A stretch of 64,000 nucleotides of DNA from an uncultured Pseudomonadota bacterium (GTDB lineage Bacteria; Oederibacteriota; Muellerivitia; Muellerivitales; Muellerivitaceae), in the NCBI GenBank assembly GCA_963770835.1, contig CAVYRH010000008.1:128001-192000 (forward strand), read 5' to 3'. Position 1 is the first letter of the stretch. Each line of letters starts with the position of its first letter. The notes under the pieces were generated by a model. That model ran no database searches. It was given only the letters and a program-made list of their open reading frames with translations, and was not told the origin of the DNA. Shown piece by piece: positions 11,603 through 40,470 of the stretch. Position numbers and translations under genes: made by a program.

Positions 11603-11632
11603 TTGTCCAATGCAGGTCCCCGTCGTGGACAA
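11603..11632 (+). repeat. 30-bp palindromic site, copy 1 (TTGTCCAATGC-AGGTCCCC-GTCGTGGACAA)
   Basis: Related copies at 12396, 34650, 37043, 39102. Confidence 0.8.
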
Positions 11633-12395: not shown

Positions 12396-12425
12396 TTGTC
12401 CACTACACCTCCCCGTCGCGGACAA
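12396..12425 (+). repeat. 30-bp palindromic site, copy 2 (TTGTCCACTAC-ACCTCCCC-GTCGCGGACAA)
   Basis: Same arms and orientation as copy 1. Confidence 0.7.
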
Positions 12426-34649: not shown

Positions 34650-34680
34650 ACATCCAATGCGGGGTCTCCGTCGTGGACAA
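34650..34680 (+). repeat. 30-bp palindromic site, copy 3
   Basis: ACATCCAATGC-GGGGTCTCC-GTCGTGGACAA. Confidence 0.7.
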
Positions 34681-34733: not shown

Positions 34734-36830
34734 TCAAGGTGAAATCACCGCCACCGCGCTGGAACCGGCGACGGCCACAAGGATCCCATTCCCGTTGGTC
34801 ACGGAGGACCAGTACTGGGAGCCGGGGAGGGTTTCATTGGTCCAAGTAACCCCGTCGGGCGAAGTCGCCGCCACCGCGCCGCCATAAATAACCGCCACAA
34901 ACAACCCATTCCCATAGGTCACCGAATCCCAGGACTGTGTGCTGGGGAGGGTTTGGGCCGTCCAAGTGATCCCGTCGGGTGAGGTTGCCGCCTTCGCCGC
35001 GCCGCCATAAGCAACCACCACAAACTCCCCATTCCCGTAAGTGACGGCGTACCAAGCCCCCGTACTGGGGAGGCTGCGGGTCGTCCAAGTGATGCCGTCC
35101 GGTGATGTCGCTGCCACCGAGTTATTGGGGGTTATCGCCACAAAAACCCCGTTCCCGTAGGCCACGGAGGTCCAGCCCGCCGAACTGGGCATGGTGCGGG
35201 ACGTCCAGGTGACACCGTCCGGCGAGGTGGCTCCCACGGGACTGCCGATTCCACTGGCGAGGGCGCCAGCCGCCACAAAAACCCCGTTCCCATAGGCCAC
35301 TGATTTCCAGTTCTGTGCGGCGGGGAGGTTATGGGCCGTCCAGGTGACGCCGTCCGGTGACGTCGCTTCCGCCGTAGTGCCACTCAAACCACTGCCGGAT
35401 GCGACCGCCACAAACTCGGAATTCCCATAGGCCACTGACTCCCAGGCCTGTGAGCTGGGGAGGGTTTGGGCCGTCCAATTAATCCCGTCGGGCGAAGTCG
35501 CCGCCACCGTGCTGGGTCCGGCGGCAACCGCCACGAAAATACCGTTCCCGTAGGCCACGGATGTCCAGTTCTGCGAGCTGGGAAGGGTTTCAGCCGTCCA
35601 AGGCATGGGTGTGGGGGTGATCGTCGGGGTGAAAGTGGGGGTGGAAGTGGAAGTCCCCGTGGGGGTGGTGGTGGCTGTGTAAGGGACGGCCGGGGTGGAA
35701 GTGGCCGTGGCGGTCGGCCCGCCCGGGGCGCCGGGGCTGAACTTGACCGGGTATTCGTAACCGCCGGTATTGGCTTCTTCCACGTAGATGTTTCCCGAGG
35801 CGTCCACCTTCACGTCCCAGGTGAAGACGTTGCCCGCCAGGTCCAGCTCGTCGCAGAAGGTGCCGTCGGTCTTGAAGACCTCGATCCGTCCGTTGGTGGC
35901 GGTATCGTCCACCACGTAAACCAGGTTGCCCGGCCCCACGGCTAGGCCCATGGGCGTGTAAAGCTGCCCCTGGCCCGACCCGCCGTTGCCCCAGCCGCCG
36001 AGGGCCTGGAGGCTGGGGCTGTAAATGGCCACCGACTGGCCCTGGCCGTCCAGCACGTAAAGGTTGTCGTTGGAATCGGTGGAAAGCGCGTTGGCGTAAG
36101 CCAGGAAGCCGTTGCTGGAAACCGAGGCCAAATCGGCGCCCGCTGTGGTCAGCTTGCGGATCAGGACATAGCTATTGCCGCCGGCCACCACGTAAAGGTT
36201 GTTCTGGGAATCGATGGTCATGCAGTAGATCTGGCGCATCGCGCCGTCCGAATTGGAACTGTCATTGAAGGCCCCGATGGAAACCCCCGAGGAATTGAAT
36301 TTTATGATTTCGGAGGTGGTGAGGGTGGCGCCGCAGCTGCCGTCATTGGTGATGTTATTGTAGGCGTAATAAAGGTTCCCGGAGCTGTCGGCGGCCATTC
36401 CTCCGCAGGCGCCGTAGTCCAGGTTGCTCACGGAGTTGCCGGAAGGATAAAATTCCCGTTGGTAGGGCCCGGACAGGCTGAATTGCTGCACCCGGTTGTC
36501 GAGGCAGGAGAGCGGGCCCTTGCCGGCATCATAGACGTAAAGATAGCCATTGGCCGGGTCGATGGCGAGGTCGTTTCCGTATCCCAAGCCCCCGGCGGCA
36601 TAAACGCCCGCCACGGTGACGGATAACCCGGCGCCGGTGGTTCCGATTTGAAAAGAGGCCGAGGGCGCCGTCAGGGGACATGCCACGCTGGTGGCCGGGC
36701 CGCCGCCGCTGTTATTGTTCCCTCCCCCGCCGGAGGGCGAGGAAGGCATGGATTTTTTGCCGGGGCAGCCGATGATTAAAAAGGTAAATCCAACCAGGAG
36801 CAAAAAAATCCCCGCGATGCGGCACTTCAT
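34734..36830 (-). CDS. Lipoprotein with NHL/SMP-30-like propeller, Thr/Pro linker and seven WxSVAYGNGxFVAV...SPDGxTWT repeats
   Basis: LIIGC lipobox; repeats visible in the translation. Confidence 0.82.
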   Translation of the reverse strand: MKCRIAGIFLLLVGFTFLIIGCPGKKSMPSSPSGGGGNNNSGGGPATSVACPLTAPSASFQIGTTGAGLSVTVAGVYAAGGLGYGNDLAIDPANGYLYVYDAGKGPLSCLDNRVQQFSLSGPYQREFYPSGNSVSNLDYGACGGMAADSSGNLYYAYNNITNDGSCGATLTTSEIIKFNSSGVSIGAFNDSSNSDGAMRQIYCMTIDSQNNLYVVAGGNSYVLIRKLTTAGADLASVSSNGFLAYANALSTDSNDNLYVLDGQGQSVAIYSPSLQALGGWGNGGSGQGQLYTPMGLAVGPGNLVYVVDDTATNGRIEVFKTDGTFCDELDLAGNVFTWDVKVDASGNIYVEEANTGGYEYPVKFSPGAPGGPTATATSTPAVPYTATTTPTGTSTSTPTFTPTITPTPMPWTAETLPSSQNWTSVAYGNGIFVAVAAGPSTVAATSPDGINWTAQTLPSSQAWESVAYGNSEFVAVASGSGLSGTTAEATSPDGVTWTAHNLPAAQNWKSVAYGNGVFVAAGALASGIGSPVGATSPDGVTWTSRTMPSSAGWTSVAYGNGVFVAITPNNSVAATSPDGITWTTRSLPSTGAWYAVTYGNGEFVVVAYGGAAKAATSPDGITWTAQTLPSTQSWDSVTYGNGLFVAVIYGGAVAATSPDGVTWTNETLPGSQYWSSVTNGNGILVAVAGSSAVAVISP

Positions 36831-37042
36831 TGTTTGGCCTTTCGGATAAACATTAAAACGTTTGGCCAAACAATCGGTTTGGGAAAATGTCTTAGCTCAT
36901 GGAGTATAGGCGTTTTTGTAAGTATTAGATACAGTTAGCATATTCAAAGCCGGGGCATCCCGGTGAAAGCCGGGAAATCATCAGCGGCTTTTGTCCAGTT
37001 ACCGCGCGCGGAAGGATTTCGGGGGGAACGAAGGGTATTGGG

Positions 37043-37072
37043 TTGTCCAATGCGGCTCCCCGCCGTGGACAG
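37043..37072 (+). repeat. 30-bp palindromic site, copy 4 (IS110 target)
   Basis: TTGTCCAATGC-GGCTCCCC-GCCGTGGACAG abutting the IS left end. Confidence 0.8.
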
Positions 37073-37145
37073 GTAACATGATGGCCATTCCACCGCCGGG
37101 ATTAAACTATTCCCGGTGAGTAGCCACTCATAAGGAGGAATGACC

Positions 37146-38216
37146 ATGAAACAGATTAGCAAAAAAGGATTCCAAGGCAAGGAGGTATCCAAGCGGGACG
37201 CCGTGTTTGTGGGGCTCGATGTCCACAAACGAAGTATTTACGTAGCAATCAGGATCAATGGAAAGGAAACCGGAACCAAGTCTGTGCCCGCGGATTGGGA
37301 AGCTGTGGTGAAGGTTCTGGAGCCTTACCGAAAAGGGTTAAAAAAGGTCGTCTACGAGGCAGGACCTACTGGCTTTGGCTTGGCACGTCGCCTTCGGGAA
37401 GTGGGATACCCATTGGACGTCATCGCCCCGAACAAAACACCTCGTGTAGCTCAGTTGGAAACAAAATCCGACCGGTTGGACTGCCGCAAGCTGGCGGAGT
37501 ACGCCGAAAAGGATCTCTTGCGGGCTGTGGCGATCCCAACCCTCCAGGAAGAAGCGGATCGGCAAGTGGTGCGTTTGAGAAACGCGATGGTGGAACAAAA
37601 ACGCAAGGCCAAACAAAGGATCAAAAGCTTTTTCCTCCAATATGGATTCAAGGAACCTAGAGGGCTGGATTACTGGACCCACGAGGCCATCGGAGTTTTG
37701 CGGGATATGGAACTGCCGCCGGCCCTGAGATTCACGTTGGATAGCCTATTGGAAGATCTCTTTTACTTTGATAGGCAGCTTAAAGACGTGAACATACGTT
37801 TGCGGGTCATGATGAAGGACAAGGCCTACGAGAAAAAGGCTAAGATCCTCAGGTCCCACCCGGGAGTGGGTGAAGTAACGACCCTGCAAATGTTAACGGA
37901 GATTTACCAGCCGGAGCGCTTTCAAAACGCCAAACAGGTGGCGGCTTACGTGGGGTTGGCCCCAAGGATCAGGCAAAGCGGAGAAACTCGAAAGGAAGGC
38001 CATTTGCAGAAGGCCGGAAAAGGAACCTTGAGGGCTACCTTAGTTGAAGCTGCCTGGTCATGGATTCAAAAGGATACCCAGGCCAACCGCGTTTTCCGCC
38101 GGTTCGTCCGTAATACGGGGCATGTCAACAAAGCGATTGTGGCAATGGCTCACAAGCTTTTGATTCACCTTTGGACTATGTTGGTTCGAAAGGAAGTTTA
38201 TCGGCCCATGCTCTAA
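37146..38216 (+). CDS. IS110-family transposase (DEDD recombinase)
   Basis: FVGLDVHK, VYEAGPTG, KSDRLD, PGVG, YVGLAPRIRQSG; AAGGAGG RBS. Confidence 0.96.
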   Translation: MKQISKKGFQGKEVSKRDAVFVGLDVHKRSIYVAIRINGKETGTKSVPADWEAVVKVLEPYRKGLKKVVYEAGPTGFGLARRLREVGYPLDVIAPNKTPRVAQLETKSDRLDCRKLAEYAEKDLLRAVAIPTLQEEADRQVVRLRNAMVEQKRKAKQRIKSFFLQYGFKEPRGLDYWTHEAIGVLRDMELPPALRFTLDSLLEDLFYFDRQLKDVNIRLRVMMKDKAYEKKAKILRSHPGVGEVTTLQMLTEIYQPERFQNAKQVAAYVGLAPRIRQSGETRKEGHLQKAGKGTLRATLVEAAWSWIQKDTQANRVFRRFVRNTGHVNKAIVAMAHKLLIHLWTMLVRKEVYRPML

Positions 38217-38219
38217 AGA

Positions 38220-38400
38220 GGTTTCAGCCTCAGTTTCGTGATTCGACCCCTTAGGAATGACCACGAGTTTTAGCTGTGCCTTAGGCACGTTGGACAGGTG
38301 GTGGCTTCCCTCAGGATTATCGAATTCTTATCTTGTGCCTCGAGCACGAATAGCAGCGTGAATCCACGAAACCAAAAGGCTGACCGTAGGAGAAAATTGG
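38220..38400 (+). ncRNA. Putative bridge/seek RNA in the IS right end
   Basis: Multiple hairpins; contains TGGACAGGT (38291-38299) matching the left target junction. Confidence 0.55.
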
Positions 38401-38446
38401 ACTTGAGGAATGGCCTCATAGCAGGAATGGCCTCATGGTTTTAAAA

Positions 38447-38791
38447 CTATTCAAACAGGATAATCTTAAGATTTTCGATCAGCTTTGCCTTATTCAACGG
38501 ATTTAACTCGCCCAAATGCTTGACGAACCGGCGGTTATCAATGGCCCGGATTTGATCGACTAAGATGTCGGAATTTTTTTTAAGGCCCATTCCTTTTTTG
38601 GAAAGGTGAACCCGGAGGATTTCCGCCCCGCGGATGACTTGTGTGGTGATGGGGCAAACAATAGTGCTGGGGTGTTGGCCGTCATTTAAAAGGTTGGTTT
38701 GGAGGACGACGACCGGCCTTGTCTTGCCCGGCTCCGTGCCGAACCGCGGGCTTAGGTCGGCCAGGTAAACATTGAATTTCCTAATCTTCAT
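38447..38791 (-). CDS. PemK/MazF-family toxin
   Basis: YLADLSPRFGTEPGKTRPVVVLQT...DQIRAIDNRR. Confidence 0.93.
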   Translation of the reverse strand: MKIRKFNVYLADLSPRFGTEPGKTRPVVVLQTNLLNDGQHPSTIVCPITTQVIRGAEILRVHLSKKGMGLKKNSDILVDQIRAIDNRRFVKHLGELNPLNKAKLIENLKIILFE

Positions 38792-39027
38792 TCGAGGGTT
38801 GCTTCCTCAAGCTTTTCCATCTCCCCGAGGATGTCCATGGAGTTCTTCCGCGTGAGCAGGGATTCCTTCAGCAGTTTTTTCCTGAGCCCTTTTCGGCGGT
38901 TGAAAGCGTTATAAAAATCCAACGCCTCATTGATGTAGGCATTTCGGGACATATGAAGCCGTTTGGTTAGGATTTCTACATCCTCGAAGATTTCACCTTT
39001 AATTTTTAGGGACAGGACCTTGGTCAT
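38788..39027 (-). CDS. RHH-type antitoxin
   Basis: LSLKI...MSRNAYINEAL; ATGA overlap with toxin. Confidence 0.82.
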   Translation of the reverse strand: MTKVLSLKIKGEIFEDVEILTKRLHMSRNAYINEALDFYNAFNRRKGLRKKLLKESLLTRKNSMDILGEMEKLEEATLE

Positions 39028-39039
39028 TCCGGGCTCCTT

Positions 39040-39070
39040 TGGAGGTATATACGAATAGTATATACCTCCA
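39040..39070. promoter_or_regulatory. Probable TA operator
   Basis: TGGAGGTATATAC-GAATA-GTATATACCTCCA perfect 13-bp inverted repeat. Confidence 0.65.
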
Positions 39071-39101
39071 ATTTCAAAAGGAATAAATAGTTTTAACCTG
39101 G

Positions 39102-39128
39102 TTGTCCAATCCAGTCCTCGCCGTGGAC
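39102..39128 (+). repeat. 30-bp palindromic site, copy 5
   Basis: TTGTCCAATCC-AGTCCTC-GCCGTGGAC. Confidence 0.7.
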
Positions 39129-39156
39129 CCTGCCTGCCACCCGGATAACGCTGCTT

Positions 39157-40470
39157 TTATTGGTTTGAACCGCCGAGCGGCGTGAGCTGTATCTGTTTGG
39201 CGAGTCCATAGGCGGCCGGAAGGTCGCTGTCGCCGGTTACGAGCACACGGCCGATGACGAGCACCGAATTGTTCGGCGATGATATCCGCGCCACCCCGCC
39301 CGGCACCGCGCCCTGCCAGCCCGGACCACTAATAAGATAATTTCCCGCCTGGGTGCCGGTGGCGCGCCGGCCGACGTAGGCAAAATTAGTGTTGTTCGAC
39401 GGATCAGTGAATTGCACGCTGTAGTAGCGGCCTGACATGTCCGGCACATGCAGGATTTGCGGCCCTTGACGGAGGTCCAACCAGCCGGCCGAAAGCAGCG
39501 TGTCGCGGTTTACCCCGGTCGTCGCCAATTTCGAGCTTGAGGCGGGCGGGTGGAGGGGGTCCGCGAAGAGGGCTTGGGGCTCCGTATAGATCGTATTGAT
39601 CGAAACGGGGCCGTCGCCGAACCCTTTCACAAGGATCGCTTTCTTGTATACGTTCAGAATGAGGCTTGGCCAAAAAGCGATGAGCGCGAAGGTAATGAGC
39701 CCCCATGCGATGACCGCCAATAAGGCGAATGGAACGAGATCGGTCCCCCCCCTAAAGAACCGCCTGTAGACGGCCCACGCGACGACTGCGGTTGTGACGA
39801 TCGCAATGAGATGTTGGGATATCACATCCGGTATCATCGCGCCTAAACCACCGGCGCCGCCGGGTCCTTGCGCCTTGACCACCGGCGGCACTTGGTACTT
39901 GCCCTCGAGGATGGCCGCGCCAGGCTGGTAAACGCGCAGCCAAAGCAAAAAAGGACCGGCCGGCGCGGGCAGCCAATTCGGCTCGTGGCCGGCCGGAGCC
40001 GTGTTTTGAATATAGATATCCACCGAGCCGTCGGCGTTCGGCACCAGGCCCGTTCTGTCGCTGACGCTGTAGCGGTTGAGGGGGTTCGGCACAAATTGAT
40101 TTTTCGCGTTACCCATCGTCAGCGACCAGAACGCGTTGTTGGGCGGCAGGCCGCCCGGCGGGAAGCGCAATAGGTAGCCGTTCCGGCCGTTGAGCGCGTG
40201 GCCCGCGCCATCGACTTTCGTCAGCCAATACATCGCCTCTTGCGGTACGTTGACGGGACCGGGAAAGATGAGGGAACAGGCGGCCCGCTTAAACAGGCCG
40301 TTGCCGGGCACCCCGCATCCCAATAAGGTGACCCAGCCGTTGACATTCGTGGCCATGAACCCCGCTAAGATTTGGAACGTGATCCAAGCCAACCAGGCGC
40401 CGACGAAAATTCCCTGCACGCCGTGATCGTGGACGGGCCTGTTAAGGATGTTGGTTAGGGTATTTGCCAT
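39157..40470 (-). CDS. DUF1214-TM-DUF1254 fusion protein
   Basis: LPPNNAFWSLTM...NADGSVDIYI...NWLPAP (DUF1214); NRDTLLSAGWLDL..GPQILHVPDMSGRYYSVQF (DUF1254). Confidence 0.8.
   Translation of the reverse strand: MANTLTNILNRPVHDHGVQGIFVGAWLAWITFQILAGFMATNVNGWVTLLGCGVPGNGLFKRAACSLIFPGPVNVPQEAMYWLTKVDGAGHALNGRNGYLLRFPPGGLPPNNAFWSLTMGNAKNQFVPNPLNRYSVSDRTGLVPNADGSVDIYIQNTAPAGHEPNWLPAPAGPFLLWLRVYQPGAAILEGKYQVPPVVKAQGPGGAGGLGAMIPDVISQHLIAIVTTAVVAWAVYRRFFRGGTDLVPFALLAVIAWGLITFALIAFWPSLILNVYKKAILVKGFGDGPVSINTIYTEPQALFADPLHPPASSSKLATTGVNRDTLLSAGWLDLRQGPQILHVPDMSGRYYSVQFTDPSNNTNFAYVGRRATGTQAGNYLISGPGWQGAVPGGVARISSPNNSVLVIGRVLVTGDSDLPAAYGLAKQIQLTPLGGSNQ

Follow-up and report, generated by a model that had tools for sequence, protein, structure and literature searches.

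The window, a 64,000-nucleotide stretch from the 4.58-Mb genome of an uncultured soil bacterium (26 contigs; close relatives of the genome carry the label candidate division FCPU426), contains a gene for an IS110-family recombinase at 37146..38216 (features lie on the plus strand unless stated otherwise). The gene encodes 356 amino acids from an ATG 7 bases behind an AGGAGG, or 358 amino acids when read from 37140. Its product carries the PF01548 and PF02371 domains, that is, a DEDD RuvC domain plus a domain at the C terminus bearing the catalytic serine, and matches NF033542 with 240 bits against a cut-off of 140; in 65 sequences D27, E73, D111 and D114 are invariant and S280 almost invariant (numbered from 37140). 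Domains, profile score and conserved catalytic residues thus place the protein in the IS110 family in the broad sense. Related proteins numbered 1064 at E<=1e-60 among 8000 scored, and the closest named ones (ISCARN28, ISSfr2, ISSso6, ISEc45 and ISHvo10) are 28-34% identical. A recombinase tree, which covered no IS621, ISEc21 or IS1111 itself, nor ISCARN28, placed the element in a separate 21-row clade (100/99) of almost exclusively uncultured sequences, outside the clade of four short IS1111-like references and beside ISHvo10 and the ISSfr2/ISEc45 group, with a weak root. With the same reservation about the root, it differs from IS5708, ISPsy16 and ISShdy1 in lying outside their clade. The element has 75 bases of non-coding DNA before the gene and at least 206 after it. 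Its left inverted repeat is predicted to pair with the ribosome binding site (37133-37138; pairing window 37083-37147) at -29 kcal/mol, and the same pairing reaches -40 kcal/mol in the 92% relative, the partners changing together in homologs. This pairing is likely to be a guard against read-through translation.

The element begins at the edge of a 28-bp palindrome (37044..37071, 13-GA-13 on the minus strand), as had been claimed in an earlier note on this DNA, and since its first base is an A the palindrome stays intact after insertion. The core dinucleotide is AG (37071..37072; the opposite strand reads CT, which is also the core of IS621). This core, proposed before, fits all junctions including the empty site described below; cores of CAG or CA were rejected, because AG with a cut after C fits every junction, AA targets included. 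The element spans AGGTAAC to CATAGC, with the cut between C and AG. A 7-base left terminal extension (37071..37077), which holds most of a -10 box TAACAT (37074-37079), is followed by a left subterminal inverted repeat of 14 bases (37078..37091), of which 13 pair with the right repeat and one T is extra. We found four full copies in the genome, the window copy included, and as further remnants a copy cut short at 531 bases and, where a contig stops, an older right end with 96% identity; the older single-ended copy has a damaged end too. Over 1366 bases the window copy shows no mismatch to any of the three other full copies (3/3), and the identity of the four points to recent movement.

The right end carries a duplication. 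In the three other full copies it reads ...CCTCATAGC-AG-GAATGGCCTCATAGC-AG followed directly by the flank, so that the unit AGGAATGGCCTCATAGC is present twice before AG and flanking DNA, and the 17-bp duplication is consequently internal to the element; these copies have terminal extensions of 7 bases on the left (AGGTAAC) and 3 on the right (AGC). In the window AGGAATGGCCTCAT occurs at 38406 and 38423. The first 17-bp unit (38406..38422) is the inner end, made up of the right subterminal repeat (38407-38419) and AGC, and the second (38423..38436) is the outer end, complete in 3/3 of the other full copies and present here with 14 of its 17 bases. In the window copy the second repeat is not followed by AGCA (AGC plus the core A), and the right extension is missing. 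The earlier note had let the element stop at ...CAT with the repeat just outside; both statements were mistaken, as the other full copies end ...CATAGC and all four share the internal repeat. A duplication of flank or target was excluded by the other full copies and by contigs of individual sequencing runs. A single right-end unit is present in the 92% relative, in other homologs and in this genome's older copy, and the genome contains no left-behind 17-bp scars, the repeat being confined to the four full copies (8 matches). Tandem right-end units were seen in 2 of 30 guide sets (defined below), as 17 bp x2 in this element and as 39 bp x4 in homolog L019 (L019:2001-2157), where every unit starts at AG.

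Joining the ends in a circle is predicted to create a promoter, TTGAGG-17-TAACAT, through a 10-base spacer (AGC + AGGTAAC) at the inner end. The -35 box TTGAGG (38403..38408) stands 17 bases from TAACAT only when the inner right end joins the left end; with the outer end joined, AGCAGG stands at the -35 position, and the outer end is the one used at all three complete right junctions. In the metagenome locus L020 (1589 onward) a right end runs into a left end with a 10-base spacer, as a circle or a tandem. A junction promoter had been proposed before, and its TTGAGG and 17-bp spacing stand; the 7-base junction and the CATGAT box do not, since the L020 junction has the 10-base spacer and the -10 box is TAACAT. 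The geometry recurs in 25/25 guide sets having both ends, but the junction patterns demanded AG/AA, TTG and three -10 bases, so that conservation of the promoter is partly built in and the spacing alone is an independent result. No circle joint of this element was found in the contigs of four sequencing runs, and a promoter-like match at 38291-38320 was at chance level (1 found, 2.0 expected).

The right non-coding end is likely to encode a two-loop bridge (or seek) RNA with four readable guides. The predicted target-binding loop (38261..38304) is closed by an outer stem (38261-38264/38301-38304) and contains an inner hairpin (38276-38288). Its 5' target guide (38266..38275) holds TTTTAG-CT (38268-38275), the complement of which predicts AG-CTAAAA to the right of the cut, and its 3' target guide, TTGGAC-AG (38290..38297), has the same sense as the palindrome arm to the left of the cut. 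The first segment would pair with the top strand and the second with the bottom strand, so that the top-strand match lies 5' of the bottom-strand match. Directly behind the 3' target guide lies GT (38298..38299), a likely handshake guide whose first base covaries with the left end. In the donor-binding loop, around a hairpin at 38335..38347, we recognized a 5' donor guide, TTATCT (38328..38333), which can pair with the left end AG-GTAA with one G-U, and a 3' donor guide, ATAGC-AG (38350..38356), in the same sense as the right end and nearly invariant, which puts it beyond covariation testing. The earlier note had read TGGACAG and TTATCT as guides, and had missed the second target guide and the second donor guide. 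The identity it reported between 38291-38299 and 37066-37074 is real (TGGACAGGT at both places), but with 66 copies in the 4.58-Mb genome this 9-mer is weak by itself and takes its meaning from covariation in homologs; the extra GT with which it ends is likely the handshake guide. A search of Rfam over 36800-39300 gave no match. In a viral collection the donor loop had no match, the left junction had one chance match, and the recombinase had 22 protein relatives.

We assembled 96 homologous loci, of which 47 were parsed. L049 and L083 (poor parse) and L007, L010 and L012 (duplicates) were dropped, which left 42 loci with 34 guide sets; L020 has no right flank, and the flank of the window copy was taken from its empty site. 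Covariation was scored with one locus per guide set against 20,000 shuffles, the best of three registers being taken for the 5' guide in observed and shuffled data alike. The 5' target guide agrees with the right flank at 137 of 156 positions over 26 sets (shuffled 65 +/- 6; 109 vs 44 in a fixed register), the 3' target guide with the left flank at 85 of 116 over 29 sets (shuffled 43 +/- 5), and the 5' donor guide with the left end at 87 of 116 (shuffled 71 +/- 3). The handshake base after the 3' target guide agrees with the first left-end base after the core in 27/29 sets (shuffled 10.9), whereas its agreement with the target flank's first base is at chance (7/26). None of the 20,000 shuffles reached the observed value for either target guide, the 5' donor guide or the target-loop handshake, although guide sets are related rather than independent and shuffle counts therefore overstate significance. 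The donor-loop handshake is weaker (13/26; 142 of 20,000 shuffles as high), and the second handshake base is not above chance.

Comparisons within single genomes do not depend on independence between guide sets and are unaffected. In G067, a genome of the same genus with a different guide, 9/9 right flanks match the predicted AGGCTCT at 5-7 of 7 positions (exactly in 5 cases, through a single G-T wobble in 3 and with two mismatches in 1), and in G052 3/3 flanks match at 5-6 of 6. The structure is conserved as well: in the homolog alignment 92% of cells in the stems are paired, 8 of 13 pairs show two-sided change (0/500 shuffles), and two loops are seen, both containing an inner hairpin; the variable guides are unpaired. 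RNAalifold returned the same helices and left all guides unpaired. Folded as a single sequence, the right end does not stand out from shuffles (z -1.4). Covariation of guides and stems across homologs supports the proposal of a bridge RNA in the right end, of TGGACAG as a target guide (unpaired within its loop and covarying with flanks) and of TTATCT as a donor guide. Together with the architecture, namely subterminal repeats, 7+3 ends without target duplication, a long 3' non-coding region and the guide order, it also agrees with the kind of element first named. For IS1111 elements subterminal repeats of about 11-13 bp are expected, and here 13 pairs with one extra left base are found (37078-37091 vs 38407-38419). 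As judged from its sequence, the window element is an intact IS1111-type member of the IS110 family.

An empty site could be recovered by checking the contigs of four sequencing runs. One X1 contig joins 37071 to 38437, reading GTGGAC-AG-GTTTTAAAAC (1/4 runs; X1 is possibly the assembly's own sample). The right target half (38437..38447) accordingly consists of the core G and GTTTTAAAAC, 10 bases from the stop codon of a mazF/pemK gene. This gene, for a PemK/MazF-type toxin (38447..38791, minus strand), belongs to the neighbouring cassette, outside the element. In register, the right target half matches the 5' guide at 2/6 positions. Contigs from X1 and X3, from two studies, cross both repeats and continue AGCAG, with loose ends at 38436; a right-side flank newly found in run X3 is unmatched in this assembly. 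The odds are about even that the AGCA missing from the window's right junction reflects an error of the assembly consensus, produced by mixed empty and filled alleles, and not a biological event: an empty allele exists, the right end is complete in 3/3 other full copies, and none of the four runs' contigs spans this junction, but the end of the older single-ended copy is damaged as well, and a shifted guide match, seen post hoc, could cause an imprecise exchange. The match in question, TAAAACT at 38442-38448, covers 7 bases of the 5' target guide and is shifted three bases from the core register.

Of the five left junctions mapped in this genome, four fall at a palindrome arm, which can be either one, and both insertions of the 92% relative (2/2) are at the palindrome family. 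All four palindrome insertions here are on arms followed by AG, such arms being 52 of 172 (p about 0.008); in the 92% relative one guide base is changed, and AA arms are used (2/2). The fifth junction belongs to the copy on contig C26, which sits at a non-palindromic site with a 6/6 match to the 5' guide and whose left junction was found in 3/4 runs. The earlier idea of a recombinase programmed against this repeat family is therefore right in so far as one guide reads the palindrome arm and 4/5 junctions are there, but the other guide reads variable DNA outside it. For six known events the right flanks match the 5' guide at 5, 4, 6, 2, 5 and 4 of 6 positions, the window being the lowest. Over the three palindrome sites with known right flank this amounts to 11/18, which does not clearly exceed the score of unoccupied AG arms (p 0.064). 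Seven arms with 4/6 matches carry no insertion, nor does a perfect 13-base match within a gene. A further palindrome arm (G000:C16:21039-21055, this genome) is followed by sequence resembling the left end, the rest being absent, either as a relic or by chance.

Insertion could be RNA-guided and yet owe its preference for the palindrome to no more than a 7-base guide match and to the survival of copies where intergenic insertion does no harm, with neither hairpin nor cassette system having a role in the choice of target. We regard this as a serious contender, if somewhat short of probable. Insertions are strongly enriched at palindromes when all TGGACAG sites serve as background (p 7e-5), but not significantly so when non-coding TGGACAG alone is counted (p 0.077, with a crude ORF mask), the C26 copy lies away from any palindrome, and homologs with other guides ignore palindromes even in palindrome-rich genomes (G067, G052). 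Against this, in the subfamily each of the six positions of the 5' guide usually shows 21-25 matches in 26 and the 3' guide matches mainly at 2-3 bases, whereas palindrome insertions here tolerate 2-5 of 6 in the 5' guide yet show 5/6 in the arm. Moreover, the G067 target is itself a small palindrome, and a target stem-loop raises the efficiency of ISPpu10 (10.64898/2026.03.19.712850). The rebuilt target of the same-genus homolog L147 (G067:C64) is a short palindrome with one central base.

The palindrome next to the element is one of 87 called genome-wide, with none in 2 shuffles of 2 Mb, and the window contains it at 11604-11631, 12397-12424, about 34652-34679, 37044-37071 and 39103-39129. 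The copy at 37044..37071 folds into a hairpin of -9.1 kcal/mol, a stability reached in 0/200 shuffles. It occurs in 24/30 other genomes of the family and in 0/68 genomes of the same phylum outside it. Neighbouring sites are co-oriented in 55/57 cases, and so is the longest ORF in 53/55 segments between them; one 863-bp segment is identical at 4 places, and segments recur unchanged between different neighbours. Each half of a site stays with the segment to which it belongs: 5 pairs show 1 left and 0 right differences and 5 show 0 left and 6 right, the 10 informative pairs being partly dependent. The only PF00239 match of the genome, a 275-aa Resolvase+Recombinase protein (G000:C17:12078-12905), ends 15 bases from the last site of its row. 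At >=70% identity to this short serine recombinase a site is found at the gene end in 8/10 loci, with a ninth about 190 bases away and one without; in more distant serine recombinase loci the count is 0/5. These observations suggest that the 28-bp palindrome is the crossover site of a serine-recombinase gene-cassette system. The assignment to the serine recombinase is put no higher than likely, because the enzyme was found (E<=1e-40) in just 9/31 family genomes, while 25 have sites. It is not an integron attC, the target of the IS1111-attC subgroup, but a 28-bp 13-GA-13 palindrome, which we take to lack the attC core and to be shorter than attC. No description of this palindrome as a cassette-exchange site was found in the literature, at abstract level.

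It is unlikely, by comparison, that these targets are REP-like or terminator hairpins or sites for a tyrosine recombinase (11-6-11). Such readings draw on the good folding of the sites as single strands, on their attraction for group II introns, on the presence of 12 tyrosine recombinases in the genome and on the gap between 9/31 genomes with the enzyme and 25 with sites. Yet the single orientation within rows, the one gene per segment and the identical segments between different neighbours fit a crossover in mid-site, as do site halves that move with their own segment; the short serine recombinase abuts a site in 8/10 loci, and no tyrosine recombinase is so linked in the array flanks inspected. 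The 11-6-11 tyrosine-recombinase reading was set aside given the sole PF00239 protein next to a site and the contrast between 8/10 and 0/5 loci. Six of the 12 PF00589 matches are related phage-type tyrosine integrases (C1, C2, C5 x2, C10 and C26; 56-80% identical); the others include one RIT-like trio and only one Xer-like protein (labels by inspection). Group II introns start right behind sites in L197 (G000:C3:38200-43600) and L198 (C11:107300-111700), some encoding a reverse transcriptase and others being an ORF-less form of 801 bp, of which there are at least 5 identical copies. A second IS110-family element occurs at L197:2099-3244 and 5 more places (30% identity, AG core, 7+3 ends); the 3 copies inspected lie antisense in intron reverse-transcriptase regions, giving a nest of site, intron and IS. 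The cassette across the site from the element (34734-36869, minus strand) encodes a 711-aa likely lipoprotein with NHL and seven repeats of about 40 amino acids.

Taken together, we assign a probability of about 0.88 to the reading that this is an intact IS1111-type insertion sequence whose right end likely makes a two-loop bridge RNA guiding the recombinase to GGAC-AG-CTAAAA-like targets, with most mapped copies at the outer edge of a palindrome that is likely a serine-recombinase cassette crossover site. That the protein alone does the targeting and the RNA matches are chance is extremely improbable: a single 9-mer match is indeed common, but covariation over 26-29 guide sets and inside G067 refutes this, short of experiment. 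Excision to a circle would require both target flanks, by analogy with ISEc11 and ISEc21, for which circle formation needs them (PMC11187229), and would be followed by guided strand exchange at the core AG, as in IS621. Since only the outer end has true target DNA behind it, the outer right end would be the one used; as a circle from the outer end has no -35 box, movement would have to draw on read-through or on supply in trans, and weak read-through expression suffices and action in trans is possible in the system described in PMC13626964. The variant with the doubled right end would then have spread despite a lost junction promoter and, if so, amounts to a natural test of the idea that pairing with the target flank selects which end is cut. 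The palindrome left whole by insertion would let the element ride with cassettes.

More tentatively, and at odds we would put a little below even, a bridge recombinase may have undergone natural reprogramming towards the crossover site of a serine-recombinase cassette system not described before: the arm would be read by the short guide, the hairpin would make a poor long-guide match tolerable, the site would be restored and the element would hitchhike with cassettes and have its site in common with group II introns, in the manner of IS1111-attC elements at attC, while the duplicated right end would remove its own circle promoter. With every guide assigned and with support from natural reprogramming, the element, an apparently active bridge recombinase from a large uncultured clade, is a ready candidate scaffold for testing in genome editing.

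Like the seekRNA elements of the IS1111 group (PMC11187229), the element has subterminal repeats with the 7+3-base terminal extensions known from IS1111, a long non-coding region after the gene, a top-strand match 5' of the bottom-strand match, a predicted junction promoter and a palindromic target; it differs from them in its recombinase (356-358 vs 330-350 aa) and in the internal 17-bp right-end repeat. Palindromic repeats or recombination sites are also the targets of ISEc11, ISPa11 (REP) and ISKpn4/ISPst6/ISPa25 (attC) (PMC11187229), unlike which the present target is neither attC nor a described REP. With IS621 (PMC11208160, PMC11208158, PMC13626964; PDB 8wt6, ISCro4 9t56) it shares DEDD plus serine, two loops and four guides and, on the other strand, the core CT (PMC11208158), with the T invariant and the C looser, and handshake bases after the 3' guide. 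Unlike in IS621, the RNA lies in the right end, the DNA orientation relative to the gene is opposite, the subterminal repeats are long and the protein is distant (E 3e-22). By analogy we infer that on the opposite strand the 5' guide corresponds to the IS621 left guide, the 3' guide to the right guide and GT to the handshake pair. From sequence alone, the "reversed" IS1111-type guide order would thus correspond to the layout of IS621 as read from the opposite strand, down to the handshake base, an equivalence not found stated in the accessible parts of the literature examined.

Targeting of REP and attC, help from a stem-loop and tandem end repeats are already in print. The clade, the palindrome target and the covariation of the handshake for a right-end RNA were not found in literature seen mostly at abstract level, and the end motifs of the window element did not appear as an element sequence in the available supplements of the bridge/seekRNA literature. 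ISPpu10, of the IS110 group, for which stem-loop-assisted targeting was tested by experiment (10.64898/2026.03.19.712850), inserts beside a target stem-loop that overlaps the guide-bound half, as does the present element, where such a role is only suggested. Tandem units also occur in expanded IS110 loci (10.64898/2026.08.14.744561), where non-coding units are bounded by one donor half (n = 468); in the present set they occur in 2/30 guide sets, and in this element, unlike those loci, a minimal unit has moved along to new sites in all 4 full copies and stands between -35 and -10. Finally, the element resembles ISEc45, ISSso6 and ISHvo10 in having subterminal repeats with AG-type ends, and it shares a YEAGPTG motif, compared only by eye, with ISCARN28, a bridge-RNA example in Durrant 2024.
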